64,000 bases of DNA from an uncultured Ectothiorhodospiraceae bacterium (GTDB lineage Bacteria > Pseudomonadota > Gammaproteobacteria > UBA6429 > Thiohalophilaceae). Location of the stretch: contig CAMYMU010000037.1 of NCBI GenBank assembly GCA_947259575.1, positions 1 through 64,000 of the forward strand, read 5' to 3'. The notes beneath the pieces were generated by a model. It made no database searches. It saw nothing but the letters and a program-made list of their open reading frames with translations, and was not told the DNA's origin. This document shows positions 10,299 to 58,789 of the stretch, in pieces. The translations under genes and the position numbers were made by a program. The number at the start of each line of letters is the position of its first letter. Positions within the stretch are counted from its first letter, which is position 1.

Positions 10299-10326
10299 GC
10301 ATAAATTTACTAGCGAGATTTTAATT

Positions 10327-10764: not shown

Positions 10765-10774
10765 TCAATTACAA

Positions 10775-12127
10775 TTAATTTTTCGCCACAAACTCGACAG
10801 TCACCACCAGGCCGTTGTCAGGGTTGTGGCTTAGATTAATCGTCGCATTATGTAATTCTGCAATACGTTGTGTAATCGATAGTCCTAACCCTGATCCCAA
10901 AATATGTTGGCAGTTTTGACCGCGATAAAATCGTTCAAATACTCGCTTTATATCCTGTTCCGGAATACCCGGCCCACTATCTGATACGCTTAGTTGTACG
11001 CGATCTGAAACCTTTTTGATCGCAACATCTACATGACCTTGTTCTGGGCTATAGCGAATCGCATTTGATAAAAGGTTGCTAATAAGAATTTCGATTGCTG
11101 GTTGGTTTCCTTTGATCTGTATCGATTCTTCACCATCAAGACTTAACTCAATATTTTTTTTATGTGACTCAGCATCAAGCTCACTTATGACAGTTTGCGT
11201 AAGCGAGTATAAGTTCAGATCTGATGTTTCATCTAGACTGGTCAAGGGTTCAAGTCTTGCTAGAGACAGTAATTGTTGAACCATATGAGTGGCACGATCA
11301 ATCCCTTCAACCACTTTTTCTAGTGCATGCCGCTGCGTGTCCTTGTTATCGGAGCGAATCGCAACCTGGGCCTGTGTCTTGATACTGGCCAACGGTGTTT
11401 GTAATTCATGTGACGCATCTGAGGTAAATCGTCGCTCACGTTCGAAGGCGGCTTTAAGTTTACCGAACAGGCTATTTAATGCGGAAAATAAAGGGGTTAT
11501 TTCATTTGGGATTTCAAAATTAACGGATATCGGTTCAAGTTTTTCTGGCGAACGTTGCCTTATTTGCTTTGCCAGCTTTCTGATAGGGCTCAAACCCCGA
11601 TCGATACCCACCCAGATGATAAACAGTAGAATCGGGATCATCAGCGTTAATGGGTACAATGAATTTTTTGTTATTTCGTGAATCAGCTCATTTCTAACAT
11701 CATAACGTTCTGCAGTAATGATTACCTGATTTTGTTCTTTGACATTAAGGCGAAATACACGCCACAAATTATTATTAATGATTTGATCACTAAACCCTGC
11801 TGTATTTGACATGATTGTGGTAGGTGCGTTCGCAGAGTGAAGGTTTAATGTATTGTTACCTAAAATCTGAAAGGCGATTTTCTTCTCATAACGGTGACCA
11901 TAGATATCTTTTTGTAGTTTTGGATCGATCATGGGGTGACTTAGATCGACCACGCTAGCGAACTGCGATAAGACGCCAGCCGCCTGGGCTAGTTCGGAAT
12001 CGAATAATTCTTCAACTTCATGACTGGACTGATAAAAAGTCGCATAGGATATACCCCCCCAAATAGCAAGAAACAGCAGGAACACCCAAACCAGTATTTT
12101 GTTGCGAATAGATTTTATTTTAATCAT
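10775..12127 (-). CDS. Two-component sensor histidine kinase (QseC/PmrB-like), 450 aa.
   Basis: Two TM segments flanking a periplasmic loop, H-box ASHELQTPLASI, C-terminal HATPase with GSGLGLSI. Confidence 0.85.
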   Translation of the reverse strand: MIKIKSIRNKILVWVFLLFLAIWGGISYATFYQSSHEVEELFDSELAQAAGVLSQFASVVDLSHPMIDPKLQKDIYGHRYEKKIAFQILGNNTLNLHSANAPTTIMSNTAGFSDQIINNNLWRVFRLNVKEQNQVIITAERYDVRNELIHEITKNSLYPLTLMIPILLFIIWVGIDRGLSPIRKLAKQIRQRSPEKLEPISVNFEIPNEITPLFSALNSLFGKLKAAFERERRFTSDASHELQTPLASIKTQAQVAIRSDNKDTQRHALEKVVEGIDRATHMVQQLLSLARLEPLTSLDETSDLNLYSLTQTVISELDAESHKKNIELSLDGEESIQIKGNQPAIEILISNLLSNAIRYSPEQGHVDVAIKKVSDRVQLSVSDSGPGIPEQDIKRVFERFYRGQNCQHILGSGLGLSITQRIAELHNATINLSHNPDNGLVVTVEFVAKN

Positions 12128-12783
12128 TGTTTGTCAATGACGTAACCGACACCACGTATCGTACGGATTAAATCATTGCCTAGTTTTTTTCGTAAGTGAT
12201 GAATATGTACTTCTATGGCATTACTGTCGACTTCTTTATTCCAGCCGTAGATATTGTCTTCCATTTGTTTTTTAGGAAAAACCCTGCCTCGGTTCTCAAG
12301 CAATAGTTGTAAAAGCTGGAACTCTACCGGAGAGAGGTCAACAGGTTTGTTGGACATACTCAAAGTATGTTCTACAGGATTTAACTCAAGCTCGCCGTGT
12401 GTCAGAGTTGGAGTTGTGCGGCCTTTACTCCTTCGTAACAATGCTCTAATGCGTGCAAGTAGTTCATCAAGATCAAAAGGTTTGGTGAGATAATCATCTG
12501 CACCCATATCCAGGCCTTTGATTCGATCCTCGGTCGCATCGCGTGCGGTCAGGATGAGTACGGGTAAGGCGTTGCCGGTTTTGCGAATCTGTTTGAGAAT
12601 ATCGATGCCTGATTTAACAGGTAAATTTAAATCGAGTAAAAGTAGATCATAACTGTCAGTTTGCAGTGCCTGCGAAGCCTGGCCACCATCAGTTAGCCAG
12701 TCGACATTATAATGATCTTGTAAAAGACCTGACTTAATGCCGTCACCAAGTATGGGATCGTCTTCGACTAGCAGAATTCGCAC
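12124..12783 (-). CDS. OmpR-family response regulator (QseB/PmrA-like), 219 aa; GTG start; 4-bp overlap with the kinase gene.
   Basis: Receiver residues (VEDD, LDLNLP, ITKP). C-terminal winged helix with the typical tail GVGYVI. Confidence 0.85.
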   Translation of the reverse strand: MRILLVEDDPILGDGIKSGLLQDHYNVDWLTDGGQASQALQTDSYDLLLLDLNLPVKSGIDILKQIRKTGNALPVLILTARDATEDRIKGLDMGADDYLTKPFDLDELLARIRALLRRSKGRTTPTLTHGELELNPVEHTLSMSNKPVDLSPVEFQLLQLLLENRGRVFPKKQMEDNIYGWNKEVDSNAIEVHIHHLRKKLGNDLIRTIRGVGYVIDKQ

Positions 12784-13059
12784 CCTGATCAGGCCCCTAT
12801 CAATGAGTTAACAATTTGGTTTGTGTTGCAGGATAAAATCTCATATTCAAAAAAAATCATAAGCTTTATTTCTTAAGCCAGACTTAAAAATAGACTCCTG
12901 AAACATATCAGCCATACAAAGTGTCAGCATCTCCGGCTATGGCTTGTTTGCTTAAGACTTTGAATGAGCTGTCATTATAGCTTTATTTCCCACCTGTTAA
13001 ATCATTCAGAGTCTGCTAATATACGCCCCTTATATATAGTATGTAGGGATTTAAGCAGT

Positions 13060-16000
13060 ATGGCGACGCTCGAACAACTTCTCAAAGAACGCATCCTGAT
13101 CCTCGATGGTGCCATGGGTAGCATGATTCAGACCTATAAGCTTGGAGAGGAGGAGTACCGTGGTGAGCGTTTTGCCGATTGGCCTTCAGACCTGAAGGGC
13201 AATAATGATCTATTGGTCTTAACTCAGCCGAAAATTATAAAGGATATACACAAAGCTTATCTTGATGCGGGCGCGGACATTATCGAGACCAATACGTTTA
13301 ATGCCAACTCGATATCGATGGCCGATTACAACATGCAGGAACTCGTCTACGAGATGAATGTAGCTGCTGCTAAGTTAGCGAGGGAGGCCTGTGATGATAT
13401 TTCTACACAAGATAAACCTCGTTTTGTTGCTGGTGGTATTGGTCCGTGTAATCGTTCTGCATCAGTAGTGATTGACGTTGATCGTCCTGGTTATCGTAAC
13501 GTTACTTTTGATGAACTAGTTGCAGCTTACAAAGAAGAGACCAAAGCGTTGCTCGATGGTGGAGTCGACCTGATCTTGATCGAAACTATTTTCGACACGC
13601 TAAATGCCAAAGCTGCGGTGTTTGCAGTAAAAGCGGTATTTGAAGATACAGGGAAAGAAGTGCCGATTATGATATCGGGCACGATTACAGATGAAGCCGG
13701 TCGAAATCTTGCGGGCCAAAATGTTGAAGCAGTCTATAACTCATTGCGTCATGCGGAGCCGATCTCATTTGGTCTTAACTGTGCATTTGGACCGGATAAA
13801 ATGAGACCGTATTTAGAGGAAATAGCTTCAATCTGTGATACGCATGTCTCTGCATATTCAAATGCGGGCTTACCAAATGAGTTTGGCGAGTTTGATCTTC
13901 TTGCTGAAGATATGGGGCCAATGATTGGTGAGTGGGCCGAAAGTGGTTTTCTAAATATTGTTGGTGGTTGTTGTGGTACCACGCCTGCACATATCAAAGC
14001 CATAGCCGACGCTGTTAGCAAATATTCGCCACGCAAAGTGAAACAACGAGACTTTACTACTCGCTTAAGTGGTATGGAAGCGTTCAATATCAATGATGAT
14101 TCTTTGTTTGTTAACGTTGGCGAACGCACCAACGTGACCGGTTCAGCTAAATTCAAACGACTCATCCTTGAAGAAAATTATGATGAGGCCCTGACTGTTG
14201 CACGCGAGCAGGTTGATAATGGTGCGCAGGTCATTGATGTCAACATGGATGAAGGTATGTTGGATGGTGTGCATGCCATGAAGACATTTTTGAATCTGAT
14301 TGCAAGCGAACCCGATATTGCTCGTGTTCCCGTTATGATTGATTCTTCAAAATGGGAGATTATCGAGGAAGGTCTAAAATGTATCGCTGGTAAAGGTATT
14401 GTTAACTCGATCTCGTTAAAAGAAGGCGAAGATAAGTTTCTTGAGCAGGCCAAGCTATGCCGTCGTTATGGTGCGGCAGTGATAGTCATGGCCTTTGATG
14501 AAACAGGACAGGCCGATACACAACAACGCAAGATCGAGATTTGTGAGCGCGCCTATAAAATTCTAACCGAGCAAGTTGGTTTCCCGCCGGAAGATATCAT
14601 CTTTGATCCGAATATATTTGCGGTTGCGACCGGTATTGAAGAACACAATAACTATGGCGTCGATTTTATCGAGGCTACCGGTTGGATCAAAAAGAATTTA
14701 CCGCACGCATTGATCAGCGGCGGTGTTAGTAATGTCTCATTCTCTTTCCGTGGGAATAACCCGGTACGTGAGGCTATTCATGCGGTGTTTTTATATCACG
14801 CGATTAAAAATGGTATGGACATGGGCATTGTCAATGCCAGTCAGTTGGCCGTCTATGATGATCTGCCTGGAGAGTTACGTGAAGCGGTTGAGGATGTAGT
14901 TCTTAATCGTCGCGATGATGCAACCGAGCGCTTACTTGATATTGCTGATAAATATAAAGGTGATGGCAAGGCGGTAGAGAAAAAAGAGGACCTGGAATGG
15001 CGAACCTGGGAAGTTGCTAAACGACTTGAACATGCCTTGGTAAAAGGGATCGATGCATTTGTCGTGGAAGACACAGAAGAGGCGCGTCAGCAGTTTGATC
15101 GACCGATCGAGGTAATTGAAGGCCCGTTAATGGATGGTATGAATGTAGTCGGTGATCTGTTTGGGGCTGGTAAAATGTTTTTACCTCAGGTCGTCAAGTC
15201 TGCGCGTGTAATGAAAAAAGCAGTCGCTTATCTATTGCCTTACATAGAAGCCGAGAAAACAGAAGGTGCCAGTAGTAACGGTAAGATCCTGATGGCGACT
15301 GTTAAAGGTGACGTACATGATATCGGTAAGAATATCGTCGGAGTCGTCTTGCAGTGTAATAATTTTGAGGTGATTGATATCGGCGTGATGGTTCCTGCAA
15401 GTAAGATCGTCGAAACAGCGAAAAAAGAAAACGTCGATATTATTGGTCTATCAGGTCTGATTACTCCCTCGTTGGATGAAATGGTGCATATGGCCAAGGA
15501 AATGGAGCGTCTTGAATTTGATATTCCATTACTGATTGGTGGTGCGACGACATCCAAGGCCCACACGGCGGTAAAGATTGAAAAGAACTATCGTGGGCCT
15601 ACCGTCTGGGTGAAAGATGCCTCCCGTGCAGTAGGTGTGGCCCAAAATCTTATTGGTGGTGAATCGAAAGAAAAGTTTGTCGCTGAGTTGCGTGCCGACT
15701 ATGAAAAAGTGCGCGAGGCACATGCTGGTCGTCGTGCGCAGATTAAGTGGTTATCGCTGGAAGCTGCGCGTGCGAATAAACTTGAACTTGACTGGGCGAA
15801 CTATACGCCCCCCGTACCTAAGCAATTAGGCGTGCAATCATTTGATGATATGCCACTGGAATTTTTAGTGCCCTACATAGACTGGACACCTTTCTTTCAT
15901 ACCTGGGAGATAAAAGGTAGCTATCCAAAGGTCTTCGATGACCCGGAAAAAGGTGAAGTCGCAAAACAGTTGTTTGATGATGCGCAGAAGATGTTATCTG

Positions 16001-22735: not shown

Positions 22736-23623
22736 TTATGCAGGTGTGGCTTGTTTTTCTTGAGGTAGAAATATGGCGCGCATACTCTCAAATTCTTGCC
22801 GCGCGGCCATGATGACAGGCTTAATAACGTCGGCTTTTAAGCCGGCCGTTTCCCAGGCACCGCTATGGATAGGTGGCGCATCGGTTTCTTCGATATTGAG
22901 AGTGTTGAGTTCTGCTAAGACCGCTAGAGTATTTGCAATATGTACGATTGATGTATGCTTTGGAAAGTGTGTCGCTTGTTCGGGAGTGTGGTGGTAACTA
23001 ATGGTTTCGACAAAAATAGCGGGTAAGTGCCAGTGGGCGATCAAAGCACCACCAAGTTGTGCATGATCAAAACCAATAATCTCATTTTCTGATTCCGTTA
23101 TCTCAGGTGCGTCTACCTGGTCCAGCTCACGTAGCAATACCTTAGTTGATGCTTCCGGGAAGTGACGGAACATGATCAACTGGCCTACGTCATGTAACAG
23201 ACCGGCAATAAACAATGAGTCGGATTCTTTGATGCCTGATAGTTCGGCAAGATTTTTTGCAATGATTCCACAAAGTAGACTATGGCTCCAAAAATCATCC
23301 ATAGTGACCAGTTCATTAGGAATGCCTTCAAAGGCTTCAACCGCACTTGTTGCTAGCACCATGTCCCGCAAGCGTTGAGTACCGATAATGGTGATGGCAC
23401 GTGAAACACTATGTATTTCATTGCTCAGACCATAAAAAGGACTATTAGCAACCCGTAACAGACGGATCGTAAGTCCAGGATCTTGACTGATGACAGCAGC
23501 GATATCAGCTGCTGAGCTCCCTTCGGATTCGATCATTTCATTGATACGGACAAAGACGCCAGGCAGGGAGACCAGGTCGTCGACCTGTTTAATGATGTCT
23601 TCTATGGCGGTGGTCATGATCAA
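22736..23623 (-). CDS. HDOD-domain protein, 295 aa.
   Basis: LPGVFVRINEMIES...IAAVISQDPGLTIRLLRVANSPFYG...IIGTQRLRDMV and the HD-like segment LHDVGQL. Confidence 0.7.
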   Translation of the reverse strand: MIMTTAIEDIIKQVDDLVSLPGVFVRINEMIESEGSSAADIAAVISQDPGLTIRLLRVANSPFYGLSNEIHSVSRAITIIGTQRLRDMVLATSAVEAFEGIPNELVTMDDFWSHSLLCGIIAKNLAELSGIKESDSLFIAGLLHDVGQLIMFRHFPEASTKVLLRELDQVDAPEITESENEIIGFDHAQLGGALIAHWHLPAIFVETISYHHTPEQATHFPKHTSIVHIANTLAVLAELNTLNIEETDAPPIHSGAWETAGLKADVIKPVIMAARQEFESMRAIFLPQEKQATPA

Positions 23624-47240: not shown

Positions 47241-47996
47241 CTATGTTTGTTCTTGCTCTTCTACATCGACTTGTTCCAGTCGATAACCTTGATGATAAAT
47301 TGCGCTGAGTTTCCAGCCATGCTCAGGAACTAATTCTAGCTTTTTGCGAATCCGGCTGATGTGGGTATCGACGGTACGGGTTGTGAATTCTGAACCATGA
47401 CCCCAGACCGAAGATAGTATGTGTCCGCGTGAAAGGAGACGACCAATGTTTCTAAACATAAATGAAACTAGCTCGAATTCTTTCTGCGTTAGCTTCACAG
47501 GCTTGTCATCTTTATAAAGAGTATGTGAGCTTAAATTAATTTTATAAGGCGGTGTTTCGATAATTTCTTTTTGTGCACTGCCACCCTGGCTCCGTCGAGT
47601 AACGGCCGCGATGCGGGCGAGCAATTCTTTCTGTCTGAGTGGTTTGGTAATGTAGTCGTCAGCGCCCTGATTAAGGATTTTGGCAATATCCTCTTCGCTA
47701 TCGCGCTGGGTGACGAAGATTACAGGGGTGTCGTGTTCAGATTGTTCGCTTAGCCAACTCAGGACTTGTTCGCCATCGAAGTCAGGCATCACCCAGTCGA
47801 GTATATAGAGGTCAAAACTTTCTTTACGTAACGCGTTTGTGAAATCCCTACCATTGGCGAAGTGAACAACATCGTACTGCTGTTCCTCCATCCATAGCTT
47901 CATTGCCTGGGCCAGGTGGACATCATCATCGACTAAGGCAATTCGCAATTCACTCTCCCTTATTATTTGAAATAGCTCAATAGTGTTAAAGTTCAA
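47241..47996 (-). CDS. OmpR/PhoB-family response regulator, 251 aa from TTG 47996; alternative TTG at 47948 with a strong RBS.
   Basis: Receiver (LVDDD, ILDWVMPDFDG, VIFVT, ITKP) plus winged helix (TRTVDTHISRIRKKL). AGGGAGAG lies 4 nt before the TTG at 47948. Confidence 0.75.
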   Translation of the reverse strand: MNFNTIELFQIIRESELRIALVDDDVHLAQAMKLWMEEQQYDVVHFANGRDFTNALRKESFDLYILDWVMPDFDGEQVLSWLSEQSEHDTPVIFVTQRDSEEDIAKILNQGADDYITKPLRQKELLARIAAVTRRSQGGSAQKEIIETPPYKINLSSHTLYKDDKPVKLTQKEFELVSFMFRNIGRLLSRGHILSSVWGHGSEFTTRTVDTHISRIRKKLELVPEHGWKLSAIYHQGYRLEQVDVEEQEQT

Positions 47997-48137: not shown

Positions 48138-49277
48138 TTAGTCGGCTAAAAATTGCTCCAGCATGGCTTGTTCCTGCATTGCATCCTGATAACCAAGCCG
48201 GATTAATTCACGGCAATAACCTTTTTCAAACAAGAGGTAGCTCGCCAGCCCAGATCCTTGCTTGCTAGAAGATCCGATACCTTTGAGCAGATAGCGTATA
48301 GTTCTAGGTAGTTCATGTACGTAGTCTTGTGCCAGTTCCCCGATATCGATACTTGGTGAGAGCACAAAAGCATCGACACGCCGCAGTGGCACTTCACTTT
48401 TTTTCAGGTGGCGATCCGGGATGACATCAATAGTTTTATTGATGCGGTGCAGGCGCTCAAGATCAGTTTCCAGACTATCCAGAAAAATACTATCAAGAAT
48501 GTGCCCCGCAATTTGTGCGAAGTTTGGATACTCACTTGTATCACTTCGTTCGCGATGTTTTTCATCTTCGCGTTGGTTGCCGATCACCAATAACCGGTCA
48601 GCACCCAGATGGAGTGAGGCGCTAAGTGGCGACATTTGCCGCATTGAGCCATCGCCAAAATATTCGCGGTGTAATTTGACTGCCTCAAACAAAACAGGAA
48701 TCGCGGATGAGGCCATTAGATGATCGATGGTGATAGGACTATGACTTCCGAAGCGGCGCACGCGAGACCAGGGAACTATGTCATCAGTGCCTTGATAAAA
48801 GGTAACTGACTGGCCCGTGCTATAGCCCGAGGCAGTGATACTGATGGCATGCAAGTGGCCTTCATCGATTACGTGCTGGATACGGGTAAAGTCCAGGCGG
48901 CGCAATAACAATTCTCGTAACGGCTTCCTGTTTAATAAGGAGACGGGATTGTGTTTGCCAAGTCCACCCAGGCTCAAGGCGACTAACCAGCGTAGTGCAT
49001 TTTTGCTAATGCTTTTAACATCACTTTGGAAAACTTGCGGTACACGAAAATTACCCCAGACACGCAGCATCTGCGCAACCGCGAAATGGTAATTATCTGC
49101 CATAGTTGCAAGCGAGATCGCATTGATCGCACCCGCTGAAGTACCACAGATTATTTTGAAGGGGCTTGGACTACCTCGTGGGTGCAGTTCGGCAACGGCT
49201 TTCATCACGCCGATTTGGTAGGCAGCACGGGCACCCCCACCCATTAATATGAGTCCTCGCTTTATGTCTTTACTCAA
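48138..49277 (-). CDS. Patatin-like phospholipase, 379 aa.
   Basis: GGGARAAYQIG (oxyanion), GTSAGA (nucleophilic Ser), DG(S/A) catalytic Asp region. Confidence 0.8.
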   Translation of the reverse strand: MSKDIKRGLILMGGGARAAYQIGVMKAVAELHPRGSPSPFKIICGTSAGAINAISLATMADNYHFAVAQMLRVWGNFRVPQVFQSDVKSISKNALRWLVALSLGGLGKHNPVSLLNRKPLRELLLRRLDFTRIQHVIDEGHLHAISITASGYSTGQSVTFYQGTDDIVPWSRVRRFGSHSPITIDHLMASSAIPVLFEAVKLHREYFGDGSMRQMSPLSASLHLGADRLLVIGNQREDEKHRERSDTSEYPNFAQIAGHILDSIFLDSLETDLERLHRINKTIDVIPDRHLKKSEVPLRRVDAFVLSPSIDIGELAQDYVHELPRTIRYLLKGIGSSSKQGSGLASYLLFEKGYCRELIRLGYQDAMQEQAMLEQFLAD

Positions 49278-49423
49278 AGTGGCTAATCCTTAGGCATCCT
49301 GTCCATATTCTACGTAAGGTTCCTACAACTATAGGTTATCAACGCTATCCATCAATAACTTTAATAGGGCTGTTTTGCCAATTCCGTCTAAAGGCGTGAT
49401 TCGCCAGGGCCGAAATAGAAGAT

Positions 49424-51097
49424 ATGTCCACCTCGCTTGCCCTTGAGAGTATCAAACCATCTGATTTGCCTGCACCTCCTCAGGCAGCATTGGAAATGCT
49501 ACGTGCCTGCTCGAACGAGGACACAGACAACCGCACCCTGGCAGGTTTTGCTGAGTCTGATCCGGTTCTCACTGCTGAGATATTGCGAGTCGTTAATACA
49601 CCCTTATTTGGTATCGGCAAGGAGGTTACTTCGGTGCGCGGTGCCATTACCTTGCTAGGTTCACGTGCACTACGCAATATTATTCTTTGTCTAATGGTGC
49701 GCGAGGCTGCACAGAATCACACCAGAGAAAATTTTGATATCACTCTTTTTTGGGAAGACAGTTTGCGTCGCGCAGTCGCGGCCAGTATCTTGGCAAGGGC
49801 CTGCAAACTAGACAAGGATGATGCCTTTACTGCAGCGATAATGCAGGACTTCGGTTTATTAGTACTTTTTTATCTTAATCCAGATACCGAGGTAAGCTAC
49901 TCAGAGCTACGCCAAATGAACCCACAAGCGCGTCGTGACAAAGAAATGCTTTTATTCGGATTAGGCCATGATGAGCTTATCAGTGTTATGGCACAAAATT
50001 GGTGTTTGCCGAATGAACTGGCTGAACCGTTAACCACACACCATCAGATAGAGAGCAGCTCATCAACAATGGCGAAAATTTTATACTGTGTGGATTGGGT
50101 TGATGCGGTATTTAATGTGGCGAATATCAACCAGACCATTCAACAGTGTCGCGAATTACTCGATCAGCTTTTAGATATAGATGAAGATCAATTGCAGGAA
50201 ATTTTCGTCGCCTTACCGGAAAAGGTCGCACAAGCAGCCCATGCGATGGGTTTGAGAATTAAGCAACAATCCGATTTTGAGCAACTGATGCGTCAGGCCA
50301 ACAGTATGTTGGCAAAGGAGAACATCAGTTATCAGGAGCTGACCTGGAAGTTGGAAAAAACCATTGCTGAACGCGATCAGCTTTCTGCTGAGCTCAATCG
50401 TGAGATAGAAATTGCGCAACAAGTCCAACGTAAATTAATGCCGGAAGCGAGAGATGCCAGTTTTCCTATACACGGACTAAACCTTCCCGCCCGAACTATC
50501 TCGGGTGATTTTTATGATGTCGTTGAGCTTCAGAATGGCAACATCTGGTTTACCATTGGTGATGTCTCTGGAAAAGGGATTAATGCTGGCATTACGATGG
50601 CGAAGACCGTGAGTTTGTTTCATTGCCTGGCAAAACATACCCAGGATCCTGCGACACTGATTCGGATGCTTAATAATGAAATATGTGAGTCGACGACGCG
50701 TGGGATTTTTGTTTCGATGGTGCTCGGGATATATAACCCGGCAGATAAAACGGTACAGCTCGTCAATGCTGGACATCTACCGGTAATAATCGATGATCTT
50801 AATAAGGGTATCATCACTTATCCTTCGTCGGATCAACCGATAGGTATCCTCGCCAACACTGACTATCAGGCCTATCCGCCTATTTCCTTGCAAAAGGGTA
50901 CGCTCTATTTATATAGTGACGGAGTAACAGAATCGAGAATGGAAGACGGTGAGATGTTACGGCAAGCTGGATTGATCGAATTAATTGACAGACATCGTGA
51001 TATACCGGTGCATGAACGCCTTGAGGTCATGGTCGATGAAATACTAACTGAGACTTCATTGCACGACGACCTGACTTTATTATTATTGGAGCCCTGA
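49424..51097 (+). CDS. HDOD-domain plus PP2C (SpoIIE/RsbU-type) Ser phosphatase fusion, 557 aa.
   Basis: N-terminal HDOD (DPVLTAEILRVVNTPLFG...ITLLGSRALRNII). Central coiled coil. C-terminal PP2C motifs SGDFYDVV, GDVSGKG, LYSDGVTE. Confidence 0.8.
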   Translation: MSTSLALESIKPSDLPAPPQAALEMLRACSNEDTDNRTLAGFAESDPVLTAEILRVVNTPLFGIGKEVTSVRGAITLLGSRALRNIILCLMVREAAQNHTRENFDITLFWEDSLRRAVAASILARACKLDKDDAFTAAIMQDFGLLVLFYLNPDTEVSYSELRQMNPQARRDKEMLLFGLGHDELISVMAQNWCLPNELAEPLTTHHQIESSSSTMAKILYCVDWVDAVFNVANINQTIQQCRELLDQLLDIDEDQLQEIFVALPEKVAQAAHAMGLRIKQQSDFEQLMRQANSMLAKENISYQELTWKLEKTIAERDQLSAELNREIEIAQQVQRKLMPEARDASFPIHGLNLPARTISGDFYDVVELQNGNIWFTIGDVSGKGINAGITMAKTVSLFHCLAKHTQDPATLIRMLNNEICESTTRGIFVSMVLGIYNPADKTVQLVNAGHLPVIIDDLNKGIITYPSSDQPIGILANTDYQAYPPISLQKGTLYLYSDGVTESRMEDGEMLRQAGLIELIDRHRDIPVHERLEVMVDEILTETSLHDDLTLLLLEP

Positions 51098-51110
51098 TTA
51101 AATTAAAGAA

Positions 51111-51521
51111 ATGAGCCAGACACTGATTAAAAAAAGATTTAAGGCTCACACCTATCAATTAAAACAGTTAAGAGATTGGGTCCGTGAATCTGCTGGCAAG
51201 GCGGGTTTGACGGATGAGCGGATAGAACAAGTAGTGATTGGTGTTAACGAGGCGTGCATGAATATTATTGAACACGCCTACAATGAAACATCAGGCGATA
51301 TAATTTTTGAAGTCATACAAGCGCCTGGGGAAATTATTTTCCAATTAACAGATTTTGCCGAAGCCGTTGATAGCAGTTGCATTAAGTCACGAGAGCTCGA
51401 TGACATTCGACCGGGCGGGCTGGGTGTACACTTTATTCACGAAGTTATGGACAAGGTCGAGTATCTATCTGGCAAGAACGGTAAAGGAAATACAATTAAA
51501 ATGATAATTACATTAACTTAA
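51111..51521 (+). CDS. RsbW/SpoIIAB-like GHKL anti-sigma-factor-type Ser kinase, 136 aa.
   Basis: N-box VNEACMNIIEHAY and G-box GGLGVHFIHEVMDKVEY. Typical size. Confidence 0.7.
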   Translation: MSQTLIKKRFKAHTYQLKQLRDWVRESAGKAGLTDERIEQVVIGVNEACMNIIEHAYNETSGDIIFEVIQAPGEIIFQLTDFAEAVDSSCIKSRELDDIRPGGLGVHFIHEVMDKVEYLSGKNGKGNTIKMIITLT

Positions 51522-51534
51522 CCTGGAAACCAGC

Positions 51535-51861
51535 ATGGAATGTTCGACACGACAGGAAGGTAAATTCATGATTGTAACGCTGGCTGGCGAAGTAGATCTA
51601 CATTACTCACCGGAAGCACGAAAACAAATATTGGCGCAATTAAATGATAAGAACCATGTGTTAGTTGATTTGTCAGGTGTGGAATATATCGATAGCTCAG
51701 GTATTGCCAGCCTGGTTGAAGGTTTTCAATTAGCAAGAAGTAAGCAGCTAGAATTTGGTCTGGTTGGCGTAAGCGAAGCGGCACGTCAGGTTCTCGAATT
51801 AGCAAGGCTAGATAAAGTGTTCCAGATTAAAGCAACTATTGCTGAGTTTATTGATCACTAA
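51535..51861 (+). CDS. STAS-domain anti-sigma-factor antagonist (RsbV/SpoIIAA/MlaB-like), 108 aa.
   Basis: VDLSGVEYIDSSGIASLVE, which includes the conserved phosphorylatable Ser in its DSSG context. Confidence 0.75.
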   Translation: MECSTRQEGKFMIVTLAGEVDLHYSPEARKQILAQLNDKNHVLVDLSGVEYIDSSGIASLVEGFQLARSKQLEFGLVGVSEAARQVLELARLDKVFQIKATIAEFIDH

Positions 51862-51878
51862 TTCAATCAGAAAATATT

Positions 51879-52703
51879 ATGGCTGAGCCCTCTAACATTA
51901 CACCTACCTCACAATTGCGCAAGCGAATTGAACAACTAGGTCTTGTCGTTGTACGGGGCATTGAAGAAATCGGTTATATGTTTCGTTTGTTATACGAAGC
52001 GCTTGAATGGGTTGTGTTAGGGAGGCAGCGTCAACAACCAGTACGGGTGAGTAGTGTATTTAGCGAAACGATGCAGATCGGTATTCAGGCTGTTCCGATC
52101 ATCGCAATTCTGTGTTTTTCGATTGGAGTAATGTTGGCGATACAGGGAATTGAAACGCTGAAAACATTCGGCGCCGAGGCCCAGGTTGTGTTGGGTATCG
52201 CCTTATCTGTTACCCGTGAATTTTCTCCTTTAATCGTCAGCATATTAGTCGCGGGTCGATCTGGCTCGGCGATCGCGGCAAGAATCGGCACTATGCTGGA
52301 ATCACAGGAGATTGATGCCTTAAGAGTCATCGGGATCAATCCGGTGCGATATTTAGTCGCACCAATTATGTTAGCAATGCTTATTAGTTTGCCTTGCCTG
52401 GTTATCTTAGGTGATGTGGTGGGCTTACTCGGTGGTGCTGTGTATACCAAGATTGATTTGAATCTACCGCTGTCGGTTTATTTTGATCGGACCTTTGAAA
52501 TACTTGTTGTCGACGATGTGATGCAGGGATTAATCAAGAGTGTTGTCTTTGCTCTAATTATTTCACTGGTTGGTTTAGCTAATGGCTTTCAGGTACAAGG
52601 TGGTGCTGAAGGCGTAGGTCGTGCAACAACGCGTTCTGTGGTTATGTCCATCAGTTTAATAGTTATAGCCGACATGGTTTTTACATATTTCCTAAATCGT
52701 TAA
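51879..52703 (+). CDS. MlaE-family ABC transporter permease, 274 aa.
   Basis: Conserved ESQEIDALRVIGINP motif. Five TM helices. Confidence 0.8.
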   Translation: MAEPSNITPTSQLRKRIEQLGLVVVRGIEEIGYMFRLLYEALEWVVLGRQRQQPVRVSSVFSETMQIGIQAVPIIAILCFSIGVMLAIQGIETLKTFGAEAQVVLGIALSVTREFSPLIVSILVAGRSGSAIAARIGTMLESQEIDALRVIGINPVRYLVAPIMLAMLISLPCLVILGDVVGLLGGAVYTKIDLNLPLSVYFDRTFEILVVDDVMQGLIKSVVFALIISLVGLANGFQVQGGAEGVGRATTRSVVMSISLIVIADMVFTYFLNR

Positions 52704-52708
52704 AAAAA

Positions 52709-53515
52709 ATGACTGATAACGCAGAAAAAATACCTGTCGTAGAAGTGGAGAATCTGGTTACCCACTATGGCGATCGCATGATCTTAAAAGGCGTATCGCT
52801 CAAGATTTACCAGGGAGAGATCATTGTTATTATGGGCGGTAGTGGTTCAGGCAAGAGTACCTTGTTGCGTCACTTACTCGGTCTACACAAACCAACATCG
52901 GGTTGTATTCGCTTATTAGGTAAGGACATCACCAAACTAAATAATCAGGAGATGTATGAGATTCGTCGTCACATGGGAGTGGCGTTTCAGGGGGGGGCAT
53001 TATTTGGCTCAATGACGGTGGGTGAAAACGTCATGCTGCCATTACGGGAGCACACCGATCTTGATGAGCAGACCATGCAGATCATGACACGATTAAAATT
53101 AGAGGTTGTTAACCTGGCCGGTTTTGAAAATCTCATGCCTTCCGAATTGTCTGGTGGCATGATCAAACGCGCGGCACTTGCGCGAGCGGTGGTAATGGAT
53201 CCAAAATTATTATTCTTTGATGAGCCTTCAGCAGGTTTGGATCCCGTCGCTGCGGTTGAACTAGATGAGCTGATTCTTAAACTACGTTCAGCATTAAAAA
53301 TGAGTATGGTGGTCGTGACTCACGAGCTGGATAGTGCATTTAAAATTGCAGATCGGATTACAGTACTCGATCAGGGTGATATATTAATGACCGATACAGT
53401 TGAGAATGTTCGTAATAGCGATAATCAGCGCATTCAAAGTCTGCTTAACCGGATGCCGCGAGATGATGCTGTTGATACTGATGAGTATCTCAGACGCCTG
53501 ACAGGATACAATTAA
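52709..53515 (+). CDS. MlaF-like ABC transporter ATP-binding protein, 268 aa.
   Basis: Walker A GGSGSGKST. Signature LSGGMIKRAALARA. Walker B LLFFDEPSAGLD. Confidence 0.85.
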   Translation: MTDNAEKIPVVEVENLVTHYGDRMILKGVSLKIYQGEIIVIMGGSGSGKSTLLRHLLGLHKPTSGCIRLLGKDITKLNNQEMYEIRRHMGVAFQGGALFGSMTVGENVMLPLREHTDLDEQTMQIMTRLKLEVVNLAGFENLMPSELSGGMIKRAALARAVVMDPKLLFFDEPSAGLDPVAAVELDELILKLRSALKMSMVVVTHELDSAFKIADRITVLDQGDILMTDTVENVRNSDNQRIQSLLNRMPRDDAVDTDEYLRRLTGYN

Positions 53516-53516
53516 A

Positions 53517-54437
53517 ATGAAACAGGACAATATCAATTATTTTGCAGTTGGCCTATTTGTTATAGCTGCGATACTGATCTTGTTTTTTGCGCTCTATCAG
53601 ATAACGGGTGGTGGTGCTGATGCAGATGAGTATTACGTAGAAATCAAAAATGTTGCGGGAATCAGGGCAGGTAGCCCGGTCAGCTATGCTGGTTTTCAGA
53701 TCGGACAGTTGGTCGATATCGATCCGGTAAGAACAAATGGTCAGACCCGTTATCGAATCAAAATGTTGATAAAGTCAGGTTGGCCAATTCCAACAGATTC
53801 AGTCGCACAGATTGTGACACCGAGTTTGCTTGGCGAAAAACAGATCGATATCGCCGAGGGGCAGAGCAAAGAGTTTTTAAAAGTTGGTGACACCTTGCTG
53901 GGCAAAGAATCGGCGGATGTATTTGTGCTGGTAGAACAAATTTCCAGTGAGTTTCAGAAGTTATCTGATCAAGGTTTAAAGCCATTATTGAAAACACTCA
54001 ATACAGAGTTTGTTGGCACACTGCCTGAGCTAGTTGGGCAAACCTCCACCTTACTCACAAACCTCAACAAGAGCGCTGAAGAATTACAAAGCCTGCTAAC
54101 AACGGTTGACCGAAAAAGAATTGATGGCATTGTTGGTAACACCCAACAGGTCACAGAAAATCTTTTGGAAGTCTCTACCAAACTCGATCATGCCGCACTC
54201 GAGGTTGATAAACTGGTCAATACGACCTCGAGCATGATGGGCTCGAATAATGAAGATTTACGCAAGGCATTACTTGATTTACGTACAACTATGGGTGTGA
54301 TTGAAGAGAACATGAGTAGTATTATGTATAACATTGATACTTCGTCACGAAACCTGAATGAATTTACGCGCCAATTACGTGATAACCCCTCGGTTATATT
54401 AAATAGTAAAGCACCCAAGGATGCGGCAAAACAATGA
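53517..54437 (+). CDS. MCE-domain (MlaD/PqiB-like) periplasmic substrate-binding protein with an extended helical C-terminus, 306 aa.
   Basis: N-terminal TM, then MCE core (YYVEIKNVAGIRAGSPVSYAGFQIGQLVDI), then ~150 aa of predicted coiled-coil. Confidence 0.8.
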   Translation: MKQDNINYFAVGLFVIAAILILFFALYQITGGGADADEYYVEIKNVAGIRAGSPVSYAGFQIGQLVDIDPVRTNGQTRYRIKMLIKSGWPIPTDSVAQIVTPSLLGEKQIDIAEGQSKEFLKVGDTLLGKESADVFVLVEQISSEFQKLSDQGLKPLLKTLNTEFVGTLPELVGQTSTLLTNLNKSAEELQSLLTTVDRKRIDGIVGNTQQVTENLLEVSTKLDHAALEVDKLVNTTSSMMGSNNEDLRKALLDLRTTMGVIEENMSSIMYNIDTSSRNLNEFTRQLRDNPSVILNSKAPKDAAKQ

Positions 54438-55036
54438 TAAAAAAAATCTTGCTCGTATGCTCAATTCTTACGTTATCAGCCTGTTTTGGTGGTGGTGCCG
54501 AAATCCCAAAAGATAATTTCTATCGTCTTAACGATATAAGTCAGGCGAAAAAAACAGAGGCATCCCCCTTTAAAGTGGTGGCAGTCACAAGCATGAAGAG
54601 TGATGCTTTACACCGTGAACGTGCCATTCTTCATACTGATAAACGCGAACCACTGCATATCCAACGTTATAATTACCACCATTGGACACAAGTTCCTAAT
54701 GAATTAATTCAGGAGCACTTGATCGATTATTTGCGCAAGGCCGAGTTTGCACCGCAGATCGTTCGTTATGGTGAGGTAGTACAGGTTGATGCCAGAGTGA
54801 GTGGTTATATAAAGCGATTTGAACGTGTGATTGACAGCGGTGAAGTCAAGGTGCAAGTGCGGCTTGAGTTACATCTGGAATCCCTTGGCAACAACTGGCA
54901 GCACTATCAATTTATTTATGATGCTGAGCAGGCGACCCAGGGCGCAAGTATGCATGCCACTGTTAATGCATTTAGCCTGGCGCTTGAAAATATCTATCAA
55001 CAATTCCTGACGGATCTCACTAAGGCTAAGCTCTAG
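54434..55036 (+). CDS. ABC-type transport auxiliary lipoprotein (DUF330/PqiC-like), 200 aa; 4-bp overlap with the MCE gene.
   Basis: Lipobox LSAC. Typical size and position after an MCE gene. Confidence 0.6.
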   Translation: MIKKILLVCSILTLSACFGGGAEIPKDNFYRLNDISQAKKTEASPFKVVAVTSMKSDALHRERAILHTDKREPLHIQRYNYHHWTQVPNELIQEHLIDYLRKAEFAPQIVRYGEVVQVDARVSGYIKRFERVIDSGEVKVQVRLELHLESLGNNWQHYQFIYDAEQATQGASMHATVNAFSLALENIYQQFLTDLTKAKL

Positions 55037-55059
55037 TAGCCATATATCTACCTTATGCT

Positions 55060-55923
55060 TTAAAGGTCAAGTCTCTCTTTGCACCAGGCCTCGATGATGG
55101 TGCGTGCTTCTACCGGTTTTTCAGTGAGTAGCCAGTGGTCGGCATGAATGGTTTTGATTTCCAGATCGGGAATTTGGCTGAGGATTTTCCTGTTGGTCTT
55201 GACATTGCTAGTGCTTGCACCGGAAGAAAGTAGTACCAACACTGGTACATCAATGTCTGCAAGTGATGGTAATTTTCGGGAGACCTCAACTAGATCTTTT
55301 AAATAATTGGCTATGGGCATGTACCTGAGATCAGTAAATGGGTTCATGTAGAGATCGGCGATATCTTTGTCAGGGTTTTCGGCGAGAAAGGTACGTGTTT
55401 TTAGATCCAGTTTTTGTAAGTCACGGTAAGGATAATGACGTTTATGGATGCCCATTCTATTAAGGGCCCCCAGGCTGAAGGCGACGAGATTAAACAGCCA
55501 GCGAAAATGGGCAACATTTTTTAGCACCCCGGTCAGTGCCTGCGGAAAAACCGGATCAATAAGTAACAGGCCACGTAAATGAGTCTGGTCTTGTGCCGCA
55601 TAATCAAGTGCTATCTGTGCGCCCATGCTGTGTCCAACTAAAATCGTGGGCTTGTTTAGTATTTCAATTAGCGTGCCGACGTCTGTGCACCAATCCCGAC
55701 GCTGATAGTGTTGAAAAGTCATCGAGTGGCCATGACCCCGTAAATCCATCGCAAGCAGATAGCTTTTGTCTCTTAAGCTAAAGTTTGAAGTAAGCTCACG
55801 CCAGCGAGTGGCATTGCTGGCAAGGCCATGCAAAAAAATAATCGCGCTGTCACTGCTTACCGAACCCATGGTTTCACAATGGATAGGTAGCCCCTTACTG
55901 TCAAACTGATACGAGTCAATCAT
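55060..55923 (-). CDS. Alpha/beta-fold hydrolase, 287 aa.
   Basis: HG oxyanion (IIFLHGLASN). Nucleophile elbow GHSMGAQ. C-terminal His. Confidence 0.75.
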   Translation of the reverse strand: MIDSYQFDSKGLPIHCETMGSVSSDSAIIFLHGLASNATRWRELTSNFSLRDKSYLLAMDLRGHGHSMTFQHYQRRDWCTDVGTLIEILNKPTILVGHSMGAQIALDYAAQDQTHLRGLLLIDPVFPQALTGVLKNVAHFRWLFNLVAFSLGALNRMGIHKRHYPYRDLQKLDLKTRTFLAENPDKDIADLYMNPFTDLRYMPIANYLKDLVEVSRKLPSLADIDVPVLVLLSSGASTSNVKTNRKILSQIPDLEIKTIHADHWLLTEKPVEARTIIEAWCKERLDL

Positions 55924-56514: not shown

Positions 56515-56838
56515 TTAATTTGCTGCTCTAACTACCAGTCCGTTTTCAATTCCGGTTACCCCGGAAACGCTACTGGCGATCATGGTGGCCTGCTTCTTTT
56601 CCTGGTCTGAGTTGACGAAGCCGGACAGGTAGACCACACCTTTGTAAGTGCTCACTTTGATTCGGAAGCCTCCCGTGATTCTGTCATCAACCAGTTTGGC
56701 TTTAACCTTGGCTGTAATCAAGCTGCTGTCAAAGAACTCACCGGTGCTCTCACGGTAGGGGGTAGAGCTACAGCCGCTTAGGCTGATAATGGCTACGAAG
56801 GCAATGATTACGGGTGTTAGTCTGTTGTTATTCATCAA
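56515..56838 (-). CDS. BON-domain (OsmY-like) lipoprotein, 107 aa.
   Basis: Lipobox LSGC. BON pattern (ITAKVKAKLVDDRITGGFRIKVSTYKGVVYLSGFVNSDQEK...). Confidence 0.7.
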   Translation of the reverse strand: MMNNNRLTPVIIAFVAIISLSGCSSTPYRESTGEFFDSSLITAKVKAKLVDDRITGGFRIKVSTYKGVVYLSGFVNSDQEKKQATMIASSVSGVTGIENGLVVRAAN

Positions 56839-56850
56839 CTGCGTTATCTT

Positions 56851-57270
56851 CTATTTCTCAAATACTTGTTCATCGTCACGAAAGGCTTTGATTTCTATCG
56901 CATTTCCAGAAGGGTCTCTGAAAAACATCGTTGCTTGCTCGCCTTTCTGCCCTTTAAATCTTATATATGGGCTAATTTCGAATTTTACATTAATTCTGCG
57001 TAGTTTTTGCTCGATTAATTCCCATTCTGACCATTCAAGAATGACGCCAAAGTGTGGAATCGGTACCTCTTTATTATCCACTAAATTTGCCTGCTTGGGA
57101 TCTACTGATTTTGTGAGGTGGGCAACAATTTGGTGGCCGAAAAAATCAAAATCGATCCAGTGCTCTGCACTGCGTCCCTGGCGGCAACCCAGGATATCGC
57201 AATAGAAGGCCCTGGCAGCCTCTAAGTCATTGACAGGAAAGGCATAATGGAAGCGAGGGCGGTCAGGCAC
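56851..57270 (-). CDS. VOC (glyoxalase/bleomycin-resistance/dioxygenase) family protein, ~139 aa. GTG start overlaps the upstream stop (GTGCCTGA).
   Basis: FHYAFPVNDLEAARAFYCDILG...HFGV...FFRDPSGNAIE (VOC fold). The longer ORF to 57483 would overlap the upstream gene by over 200 nt and is rejected. Confidence 0.6.
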   Translation of the reverse strand: MPDRPRFHYAFPVNDLEAARAFYCDILGCRQGRSAEHWIDFDFFGHQIVAHLTKSVDPKQANLVDNKEVPIPHFGVILEWSEWELIEQKLRRINVKFEISPYIRFKGQKGEQATMFFRDPSGNAIEIKAFRDDEQVFEK

Positions 57271-57814
57271 GACGGCGTACCATGAGCCAATAGCGAACCC
57301 CAATGCTAACCAGTAGCAGGGCCAGGCTAGGTAAGACAATCCATTTGAATTCATTGCTGAGCACCCGCCAACCACCCCACTCAAGGAAATCGCGCAGCCC
57401 AATAGGGGATACCTGGATCGGACGAAGCGGCAAGAAATACCGGGCATCATCGAAAGGTGAGAAAAACGCAATCCCCAGGCCACCGTTGGTCATGGAATCA
57501 AACAGGCCATGGGAGGCGGTCACCAGGAAGAAAAAAACGACCAGGCGGAGGCGTAGTGGACGGTATTGTTCCTGATAAAAGGCCAGTAATACCACCAGCA
57601 GGCTGGTAGCCAGGGCGAAGGTGAGAGAGTGGCTAAAGCCCCTGTGTCCCCAAAATTCGCCATATTTCACACCTAAAGAAAATCCTATCACGTCGATGTC
57701 CGGTAGCATCGAGCAGCCCAGTGCCAGGACCCAGAAACGTAGCGGCAGACTCGTATGCTTGAATACGTGAGCTAGTGAAACGGCAAATACACTATGGGCG
57801 ATAATGGTAGGCAC
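57263..57814 (-). CDS. Membrane-bound metal-dependent hydrolase, YdjM/DUF457 family, 183 aa.
   Basis: His-rich TM protein (HS..., DIDVIG, HRGFSHSL) matching the YdjM-like pattern. Confidence 0.6.
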   Translation of the reverse strand: MPTIIAHSVFAVSLAHVFKHTSLPLRFWVLALGCSMLPDIDVIGFSLGVKYGEFWGHRGFSHSLTFALATSLLVVLLAFYQEQYRPLRLRLVVFFFLVTASHGLFDSMTNGGLGIAFFSPFDDARYFLPLRPIQVSPIGLRDFLEWGGWRVLSNEFKWIVLPSLALLLVSIGVRYWLMVRRRA

Positions 57815-57928: not shown

Positions 57929-58789
57929 ATGTCAGCAGCAGTGCAGGCGTTGGTCGATGATATCGGTGAGCTGATTTCATTGCCAGAAGTCGTTCTTAAA
58001 ATTAATGAGATGGTCAACAGTGAGGATACCAGTGCTGCGGAGATTGCTGAGGTTATCAGCCATGACCCCGCAATTGCCACGCGTATCCTGAAAGTAGCCA
58101 ATAGCTCGATGTATGGTGGTCAGCGTCAAATAGAGTCCATTACCCGAGCCGTGACTGTACTAGGTACCAAGCAGATTCGTGATCTGGTGCTGACCACAAC
58201 GGCCGCGCGCGTGTTTGATGGAATATCGAATGAGGTCATCTCGGTCGAGGATTTCTGGCATCACAGTCTTTACTGCGCGCTACTTGCCAGTGAGCTGGCC
58301 AAGGTCTCCAAACGAGCAAATGCAGATACCATGTTTACCGCTGGTTTACTGCATGATATTGGCCACCTGGTGATGTTTAACCAGATTCCGGAAGAGTCAA
58401 CAGCGGCTATCTTATTGACCATTCAGGGTGAATCGAGTCTTGAACCCTATCAGGCAGAGCAACAAATACTCGGTTATGACCATGCCGATGTAGGCGCAAG
58501 CCTGGCGAAGCAATGGCACCTGCCAGAAATCCTGGTGAGTTGTATCGGCTTTCACCACAATATGGATGCCTGCGAGGAGCACTGCGAGGCAGTAGCGCAT
58601 ATTCACATTGCCAACGTCATTGCATCCCTGCCTTATAGCGATATTCCCGATGCCAATGATTTAGAGCGTATTTCAGCAAAAGCCTGGGCGCTGGCGCACC
58701 TTAATCCTGACGAGATTGGTGATGCGATTCGGGAAGCTCAGGCCCACATTAGCGAGACGCAGTCGCTACTGTTTGGGAATGGGGATTAG
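57929..58789 (+). CDS. HDOD-domain protein, 286 aa.
   Basis: LPEVVLKINEMVNS...IAEVISHDPAIATRILKVANSSMYG...VLGTKQIRDLV, and LHDIGHLV. Confidence 0.7.
   Translation: MSAAVQALVDDIGELISLPEVVLKINEMVNSEDTSAAEIAEVISHDPAIATRILKVANSSMYGGQRQIESITRAVTVLGTKQIRDLVLTTTAARVFDGISNEVISVEDFWHHSLYCALLASELAKVSKRANADTMFTAGLLHDIGHLVMFNQIPEESTAAILLTIQGESSLEPYQAEQQILGYDHADVGASLAKQWHLPEILVSCIGFHHNMDACEEHCEAVAHIHIANVIASLPYSDIPDANDLERISAKAWALAHLNPDEIGDAIREAQAHISETQSLLFGNGD

Follow-up and report, generated by a model that had tools for sequence, protein, structure and literature searches.

A probable operon joining an RsbW/RsbV-type phosphorylation module to an MCE-family lipid transporter in an uncultured Ectothiorhodospiraceae bacterium

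Described systems and the seven-gene cluster

Mla is the best-studied of the MCE systems, and the regulation of phospholipid traffic between bacterial membranes is largely unknown. In the E. coli MlaFEDB transporter (structures 6XGY/6XGZ and 6XBD), the permease MlaE, the ATPase MlaF and an MCE protein operate with one small STAS protein, MlaB, encoded in the same operon; MlaF needs MlaB to associate with the complex, Thr52 of MlaB lies at the centre of their interface, the T52E substitution weakens binding (PMC7367683), and T52A abolishes ATPase activity (PMC5016091). Phosphoregulation at Thr52 was proposed by two groups, in 2016 (PMC5016091) and in 2020 (PMC7367683), with neither a kinase nor a phosphatase known. 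Here we describe a cluster of seven genes in positions 1 to 64,000 of contig CAMYMU010000037.1 from an uncultured Ectothiorhodospiraceae bacterium (assembly GCA_947259575.1; this whole stretch of 64,000 nt is referred to as the window), in which genes for a sensor phosphatase, a serine kinase and a STAS protein precede those for an Mla-like transporter. The seven genes probably constitute one operon joining a partner-switching-type phospho-module to an MCE-family lipid ABC transporter, the control of which would be post-translational and involve no sigma factor.

The cluster resembles MlaFEDB in combining an MlaE/MlaF/MCE transporter with one small operon-encoded STAS protein, in the Ser or Thr at the N-terminus of helix α2 of that protein (Ser54 here, Thr52 in MlaB), and in the Y-x-x-x-L tail of MlaF. 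It differs in the position of the STAS gene, which lies upstream of the permease and ATPase genes instead of closing the operon, and in the STAS protein, which is full-length, of the RsbV/SpoIIAA type and accompanied by a dedicated kinase and a sensor phosphatase, none being known for MlaB. Moreover, MlaC and MlaA are missing from the cluster, the MCE protein is long, and a PqiC-like lipoprotein is encoded. The MlaE, MlaF and MlaD counterparts all scored below the E. coli equivalog cut-offs that define canonical Mla.

The order permease, ATPase, long MCE protein and PqiC/ABC_trans_aux lipoprotein is shared with the Mla-Pqi chimeric system MpcEFDA of Brucella abortus (PMC12436622) and with two Azospirillum operons (L089 and L090 in the numbering of loci used below), whose MlaE proteins had 40-45% identity to that of the window. 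In these Mpc-type systems STAS is fused to the N-terminus of the permease, whereas here it is encoded by a separate gene 17 bp upstream; moreover, no kinase or phosphatase gene is located near the Azospirillum operons, whereas here both precede the STAS gene. The ABC transporters of the Sphingobium LinKLMN type consist of a permease, an ATPase, a periplasmic MCE protein and a lipoprotein, the same four components as here; to our knowledge, no STAS, kinase or phosphatase genes are associated with them.

With the B. subtilis modules RsbU-RsbV-RsbW-SigB and SpoIIE-SpoIIAA-SpoIIAB-SigF, the cluster shares a sensor-PP2C phosphatase, a GHKL kinase with a HATPase_c_2 domain and a STAS protein with the DSSG motif, and, in both sequence and structure, the kinase and the STAS protein were matched best by proteins of these modules. 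In contrast to them, no sigma factor was found here in the operon or within 10 kb (85 loci), an ABC transporter being apparently co-transcribed, and the output proposed here would consist in STAS itself binding an ATPase, whereas in the B. subtilis modules the kinase sets a sigma factor free. Partner-switching-like modules with non-sigma outputs differ from the operon studied here in gene architecture, SypE of the SypE/SypA system, for example, being a fusion of kinase, receiver and phosphatase. In Vibrio fischeri SypE/SypA (PMC10120452, PMC4517449) and Anabaena HenR/STAS/glycosyltransferase (PMC13555669), according to the abstracts, the STAS protein is likewise the output, set by a kinase and a PP2C phosphatase, and the target likewise belongs to the envelope or its polysaccharides and not to transcription; the targets there are biofilm polysaccharide production or a glycosyltransferase, with no ABC ATPase or lipid trafficking.

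The seven genes are located on the + strand and span nt 49424-55036 in the open reading frame (ORF) list of the window, with intergenic gaps of 13, 13, 17, 5 and 1 bp in order and an overlap of 4 bp between the last pair. The first-pass annotation of this DNA had given exactly this layout, and its domain assignments agreed with a Pfam profile search for each of the seven products. The upstream neighbour is a divergent patatin-like gene (nt 48138-49277, - strand) and the downstream neighbour a convergent alpha/beta hydrolase gene (nt 55060-55923, - strand), thereby delimiting the unit at these ends. A scan of nt 49000-55400 for promoters and terminators gave numbers within chance (17 vs 13.2±3.2 and 9 vs 5.3±2.2) and no informative site, and no Rfam family reached its gathering score in the window (nt 1-64000).

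The phosphatase possessed an HDOD domain at residues 15-208 (E 1.1e-43) and a PP2C/SpoIIE domain at residues 371-556 (E 7.4e-40), and the PP2C metal-binding motifs GDFYD, DVSGKG, DG.TE and DD.TL were conserved among 48 family members. The kinase matched Pfam HATPase_c_2 (E 5.3e-26), and its sole sequence match in PDB was B. subtilis RsbW (6m36), the chain against which the alignment of the kinase motifs was checked. As its scores fell under the RsbW and SpoIIAB equivalog cut-offs of NCBIfam, it is, as judged from sequence, a member of the RsbW/SpoIIAB superfamily and not an RsbW orthologue. Conserved family-wide were the N-box NEACMNIIxHAY, the Asp of the G1 box and the G2 box PGGLGVHF; the G1 box itself read D-F-A instead of D-x-G, being D-F-A-x-x-V-D throughout the family versus the usual D-x-G-x-G (residues about 80-88). 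The G1 box of B. subtilis RsbW likewise has only one glycine.

The STAS protein matched Pfam STAS (E 1.8e-20) and, with 75.9 bits against a cut-off of 53.45, the anti-sigma-factor antagonist superfamily model TIGR00377. The DSSG serine expected of it was present, the translation reading Y-I-D-S-S-G; Ser54 and the YIDSSG motif were invariant across the family, and Ser54 aligned with the phospho-serine position of SpoIIAA/RsbV as well as with Thr52 of E. coli MlaB. Family members shared 57-78% identity over 80 species, with 35% of the positions at least 95% conserved; more than 120 clusters of proteins with 65-100% identity to the STAS protein were found, all about 108 amino acids (aa) long and consisting of STAS only, while a tblastn search of 72,556 plasmids with this protein gave no match. 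An AlphaFold2 model, with a predicted local distance difference test score (pLDDT) of 92, had the full SpoIIAA-type topology with helix α2 beginning at residue 54, and a Foldseek search with it placed TM1442, RsbV and SpoIIAA on top (template modelling (TM) score about 0.85). By sequence and predicted fold, this protein is of the RsbV/SpoIIAA type and not an MlaB orthologue.

The permease was matched by Pfam MlaE (E 5.2e-69) and passed only the broad subfamily model TIGR00056 (214.8 bits vs a cut-off of 212.2), scoring 168 bits against perm_MlaE_1 (cut-off 315). The ATPase matched ABC_tran (E 5.5e-35); its top NCBIfam model was MlaF PRK11831, at 207 bits versus an equivalog cut-off of 441, and its best PDB matches were the MlaF chains of MlaFEDB structures. 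The C-terminal tail of the ATPase aligned with the extension GDYHADLL of E. coli MlaF, the family consensus being D.D.YL.RLTG; Tyr261 and Leu265 of E. coli MlaF, which dock in the MlaF-MlaB groove, were aligned with the Y-x-x-x-L motif here. The MCE protein matched Pfam MlaD at residues 37-115 of 306 (E 3.9e-15) and TIGR00996 at residues 14-264 (E 5e-29), and scored 73 bits against MlaD TIGR04430 (cut-off 135). The long helical extension ascribed to it at first has a weaker basis than the other assignments, namely the length of the protein, 306 aa versus 183 aa in E. coli MlaD, the TIGR00996 match and a single-sequence AlphaFold2 model of low confidence (pLDDT 48) in which residues 114-295 were helical. 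The lipoprotein matched ABC_trans_aux at 27.9 bits (cut-off 26), carried the N-terminus MIKKILLVCSILTLSAC with a lipobox-like LSAC, and was encoded at the same position in 63 related loci. No match to MlaC or MlaA was found within the cluster or the 64-kb window.

Conservation of the linkage and STAS-MlaE fusions

Matches to two family motifs placed the STAS family in at least 597 species-level genomes, with carriers labelled Gammaproteobacteria, Thiohalobacter, Thiogranum, Chromatiales, Ectothiorhodospiraceae and Methylococcaceae, nearly all of them metagenome-assembled genomes. A total of 85 loci (denoted L001 and so on) were fetched, 80 of them species-level and representing the best 80 of the at least 597, and the seven proteins of the window were mapped onto each, start codons in the related loci being chosen heuristically. 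The order kinase-STAS-MlaE-MlaF-MCE-lipoprotein (type A) was observed in 63 of the 80 species loci; of the others, one ended inside MlaE, five had STAS directly followed by MlaF (type B), 10 were without a transporter in the flank available, and one could not be judged. Genes for an MlaF-type transporter thus directly followed STAS in 69 of 79 evaluable species loci (87%), a value that applies to the closer relatives, and in 64 of 69 loci no more than 30 bp separated STAS from MlaE. In L005, the cluster was intact between unrelated flanking genes. The kinase gene adjoined STAS in 76 of the 80 species loci by automated count, with a partial match in L079 in addition.

MlaF was the most conserved protein of the cluster, with 62-83% identity among loci, type B included. 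In type B, STAS directly preceded an MlaF 65-71% identical to that of the window, and the permease was a canonical MlaE with 33-36% identity to the permease of the window and 38-39% to that of E. coli; the genes after it were those for a short MlaD and for MlaC, without an mlaB. L027 (nt 7867-11244) encoded HDOD-PP2C, kinase, STAS and MlaF alone; the 9 kb downstream contained no gene for a permease, an MCE protein or a lipoprotein, an opposite-strand msrA-like gene being next. The constancy of MlaF beside STAS in these loci, with a different permease or none, points to MlaF as the output. Two loci contained a second canonical set 3-4 kb downstream without an MlaF or STAS of its own: MlaE-MlaD-MlaA-MlaC in L005 (nt 10119-13265) and a Mla permease set in L009 (nt 13704-14465). 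One regulated MlaF-STAS pair may power two MCE permeases, Mpc-type and canonical Mla-type, in some species. The cluster of L060 was intact apart from MlaE (nt 8739-9149), in which the match to the window protein was confined to residues 9-56 and 220-274; the gene has an internal deletion, is a pseudogene or was misassembled.

The sensor-phosphatase gene was kept in nearly all loci, and the sensors were exchangeable: HDOD in 44 loci, GAF in about 30, a receiver in L047 and none in L008 and L020. This variable sensor next to a constant kinase-STAS-MlaF core suggests MlaF as the output. The two loci lacking a sensor encoded a bare PP2C of about 250 aa after the lipoprotein gene and not before the kinase (L008, nt 6683-7420; L020, nt 13607-14359). 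A single polypeptide of 566 aa with the Pfam-confirmed architecture GAF-SpoIIE-HATPase_c_2 was encoded in L024 (nt 8259-9956), and an HDOD-PP2C-kinase fusion appears likely in L016 from the length of an ORF of 713 aa (-2141 to 0 relative to STAS).

A phmmer search with E. coli FliA, RpoS and RpoE (E≤0.1; ORFs of at least 60 aa; window and 85 loci, 1.34 Mb) detected no sigma factor in the 64-kb window or within 10 kb in the 85 loci, although the annotated rpoH of a control locus was recovered (E 5e-34). Similarly, no second STAS or MlaB ORF was found in the window or the 85 loci with the STAS family profile and E. coli MlaB as queries, and L047 left no room for a trailing mlaB. Both absences had been stated for the operon in the first-pass annotation, and neither gene turned up downstream; each locus contained a single STAS ORF.

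Fusions of STAS to MlaE, in which STAS is N-terminal, are reported for Brucella MpcE (PMC12436622) and had already been noted by Thong et al. (PMC5016091). In Azospirillum L089 and L090, the same four-gene operons encoded MlaE proteins of 378-384 aa with Pfam STAS and MlaE domains. In an exhaustive search of 1.84 billion representatives, from which the nearest 150 at the 50%-identity level were taken, 102 of these 150 MlaE representatives had an N-terminal extension, at least 82 of the 102 with a Pfam STAS domain, whereas MlaE in all 69 loci with a free STAS gene was 261-287 aa long and none was fused. The gene order STAS-MlaE corresponds to the domain order of the fusions, and most fused STAS domains with a recognisable motif retained Ser or Thr at the site equivalent to Ser54. 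When profiles of the free STAS family and of the fused domains were compared, the probability was 99% (E 3.5e-18), while BLASTP of the window STAS protein against the Azospirillum fusion gave no significant match (E 8.3). The complementary distribution of free and fused STAS suggests the MlaF transporter as the output.

Evolutionary rates and co-variation were suggestive of the same tie between STAS and transporter. Mean distances were 0.57 for STAS, 0.58 for MlaE and 0.41 for MlaF, versus 1.06 for the kinase and 1.04 for PP2C. After removal of the shared phylogenetic signal, the residual co-variation of STAS was 0.27 with MlaE, 0.25 with MlaF, 0.20 with the kinase and 0.01 with PP2C. The highest values, 0.51 for MlaE-MCE and 0.35 for MCE-lipoprotein, belonged to pairs with known contacts, which validates the mirror-tree method. 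As a means of deciding between STAS-MlaF and STAS-kinase partnership, co-variation was discarded, the separation being too weak.

A proposed switch at MlaF and competing explanations

By analogy with MlaB in E. coli, the unphosphorylated STAS protein would bind the helical subdomain of MlaF, so that the ATPase would be stabilised or activated on the permease and the transporter would be on. The RsbW-like kinase would phosphorylate Ser54 at the centre of the interface, where the phosphate would repel MlaF and turn the transporter off, and the HDOD-PP2C protein would strip the phosphate upon a cytoplasmic signal, with GAF or receiver domains providing the input in other species. It would then be the STAS protein, and not the kinase, that switches partners, between kinase and MlaF. 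The sequence data establish the content and spacing of the genes, the identities of the domains, the conservation of the catalytic and phospho-acceptor motifs and of the linkage, the pattern of domain fusions and the lack of sigma factor and MlaB genes nearby. That the kinase acts on Ser54, that STAS binds MlaF and that phosphorylation has the sign given here we infer, as we do the nature of the signal, the lipid substrate and the direction of transport. Gating of MlaF by STAS through phosphorylation of Ser54 appears probable. We also incline, with some reserve, to the wider view that MlaF replaces the sigma factor as the output of a partner switch, with an RsbV-type STAS protein shuttling between kinase and MlaF and exchangeable sensors switching lipid transport within seconds without transcription.

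Several observations weigh against gating of MlaF by this STAS protein. The protein scored 29.1 bits against mlaB_1 (NF033618; cut-off 90); its family profile matched TM1442 in PDB with 64 bits and MlaB with 19 bits (E 0.009); the MlaB chains ranked 43-48 in Foldseek with TM scores of 0.65-0.76; and the model has strand β5 (residues 97-99) and helix α4 (residues 102-107), elements without counterpart in MlaB, whose STAS fold is reduced to a minimum, with no fifth strand and no final helix (PMC7367683). E. coli MlaB T52A keeps binding but loses activity, so that the sign of a phospho-effect would not be simple. The MlaF of Veillonella also has a C-terminal extension, yet no MlaB (PMC10665443), and the tail motif is thus no proof of a STAS partner; nor does conservation of the MlaF helical subdomain discriminate, a criterion rejected because this subdomain is conserved in MlaF generally, including in comparison with E. 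coli. The departure of the kinase G1 box from D-x-G makes its activity less than certain, and the frequency of linkage holds for the closer relatives. With regard to the MlaB comparison, hhalign of the STAS family with E. coli MlaB gave 83% probability. The first-pass proposal that the RsbV-like protein is the MlaB of this transporter accordingly fails as a statement of family-level homology and retains its meaning only as functional replacement; a merely displaced mlaB is rejected in view of the failure in the MlaB family model and of the full SpoIIAA fold. The protein plausibly works like MlaB despite failing the sequence and fold definitions of the latter.

In canonical partner switching, the kinase is the protein that binds the output. 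The transporter might simply occupy the place of the sigma factor, with the kinase binding and inhibiting MlaF or MlaE and the STAS protein sequestering the kinase without ever contacting MlaF. The RsbW- and RsbV-like character of kinase and STAS in sequence and structure is in line with this, conserved operon linkage fits it equally well, and the residual co-variation of kinase and MlaF, 0.28, was as high as that of STAS and MlaF, the differences being small. We nevertheless consider it improbable. Most of the nearest relatives carry STAS and MlaE in one polypeptide, in operons that lack the kinase, which indicates that this transporter type has a STAS domain in its own right; MlaB binds MlaF directly in E. 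coli; the kinase evolves about 2 times faster than STAS and MlaF; and the GAF-PP2C-kinase single polypeptides fit a modifier better than a stoichiometric inhibitor of an ATPase. The opposite view, that STAS is a constitutive structural subunit replacing MlaB, which the kinase and phosphatase no longer modify, acting elsewhere if at all, so that there is no phospho-gating, draws on the departure of the G1 box and on E. coli MlaB, which functions with no known kinase. It is very improbable in view of the invariance of Ser54 and YIDSSG, the family-wide conservation of the N-box, G1 Asp and G2 box of the kinase and of the PP2C metal ligands, the near-constant adjacency of the kinase gene, and the retention of a sensor phosphatase with exchangeable sensors, a pattern typical of live signalling modules.

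The foremost alternative, still an unlikely one, is that the target of the module is encoded elsewhere in the genome, being for example a sigma factor, an FlgM-like anti-sigma factor, a cyclase or another enzyme, and that the module is merely co-transcribed with a transporter that needs no STAS subunit. Many Gram-negative modules have unlinked or non-sigma targets, for example SypE/SypA and HenR/STAS/glycosyltransferase (PMC13555669); the STAS protein is typical of the RsbV type; and Veillonella MlaEFD works without MlaB (PMC10665443). In addition, 10 of the 79 evaluable loci had the module or a lone STAS gene with no transporter within 10 kb, and hence the module can exist without a linked transporter. 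Three of these (L059, L065 and L082) had GAF-PP2C, kinase and STAS (at about nt 10001) followed by a CHASE2 adenylate/guanylate cyclase of 748 aa (L065, nt 10404-12650), and three others (L031, L039 and L072) had convergent FHA and PP2C genes next; the genes that follow may represent other outputs of such a switch or have no functional tie to it. In a neighbour-joining tree without support values, however, the modules lacking a transporter were nested within those linked to one, which suggests secondary separation. The high linkage with two transporter gene orders, an MlaF-only locus and varied flanks and sensors, the complementary distribution of the free STAS gene and the fused domain, the lack of a sigma factor within 10 kb in 85 of 85 loci, and the rate of STAS, equal to that of the transporter core, all speak for a target in the transporter as well. 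That an ordinary MCE transporter came to lie beside an ordinary partner-switching module by chance is supported only by the frequent occurrence of both gene sets in Proteobacteria. Since the order and tight spacing recurred in 63 of the 80 species loci, also with different flanks, chance is excluded for practical purposes, and the concern raised in the first-pass annotation that relatives might lack the linkage was not borne out, the 69 linked loci including some with unrelated flanking genes.

Coordinates, neighbouring genes and significance

The positions of the seven genes and of two features within them are listed in Table 1.

Table 1. Features of the cluster in the window, with predicted or proposed roles
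Feature	Position (nt)	Strand	Basis
HDOD-PP2C sensor phosphatase; predicted phosphatase of phospho-STAS	49424..51097	+	Pfam HDOD, SpoIIE
RsbW/SpoIIAB-type GHKL serine kinase, 136 aa; predicted kinase of STAS Ser54	51111..51521	+	Pfam HATPase_c_2
RsbV/SpoIIAA-type single-domain STAS protein, 108 aa; proposed phospho-switchable MlaF partner	51535..51861	+	Pfam STAS
Ser54 codon, predicted phospho-acceptor, YIDSSG motif, N-terminus of helix α2	51694..51696	+	Translation
MlaE-family ABC permease, 274 aa, unfused	51879..52703	+	Pfam MlaE
MlaF-type ABC ATPase, 268 aa; proposed STAS target	52709..53515	+	Pfam ABC_tran
MlaF C-terminal extension LLNRMPRDDAVDTDEYLRRLTGYN, Y-x-x-x-L motif	53441..53512	+	Alignment with E. 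coli MlaF
MCE protein, 306 aa; N-terminal membrane helix, one MCE domain, putative long C-terminal helical region	53517..54437	+	Pfam MlaD, TIGR00996
PqiC/ABC_trans_aux-family lipoprotein, 200 aa; start overlaps MCE stop codon by 4 bp	54434..55036	+	Pfam ABC_trans_aux

The neighbourhood has a lipid and envelope theme, with the patatin-like phospholipase gene upstream and the alpha/beta hydrolase gene downstream; further genes on the - strand encoded a BON-domain protein (nt 56515-56838), a YdjM membrane protein (nt 57263-57814) and an OmpR-type response regulator (nt 47241-47996). Synteny around the cluster was retained in L001-L004 and not in L005. A gene with HDOD and HD domains at nt 57929-58789 (+ strand), 2.9 kb downstream of the cluster, was syntenic in relatives, and an HDOD-like match was observed at about nt 22970-23578 (- strand), approximately 26 kb upstream.

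Non-sigma outputs of partner switches (SypA/SypE, HenR/STAS) and control of an ABC ATPase by a STAS protein (MlaB) are already known, and it is the combination that is new. In the searchable full-text literature, which covers few subscription-journal papers, nothing was found on a linkage of genes of the RsbW or RsbU type to Mla or MCE operons, and the linkage was not described in a review of STAS-only proteins, a survey of PPM phosphatases or a phylogenomic survey of Mla. The initial statement that no described system matches the cluster holds to that extent, with the restriction that phosphoregulation of MlaB had been put forward in print before (PMC5016091, PMC7367683).

If the proposed switch is correct, the kinase and phosphatase of this cluster would be the first such enzymes found in nature for a STAS subunit of the Mla type and would answer a question open since 2016, whether and how the STAS site of Mla-type transporters is phosphoregulated. 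A natural system with a kinase and a sensor phosphatase beside STAS and the ATPase occurs in hundreds of gammaproteobacterial species, which makes the hypothesis directly testable. Partner switching, so far associated chiefly with sigma factors, would come to include the direct control of an ABC transporter, and the system would be a rare case of post-translational gating of an envelope-biogenesis machine, with the exchangeable sensor domains offering a route to the signals that control outer-membrane lipid homeostasis.

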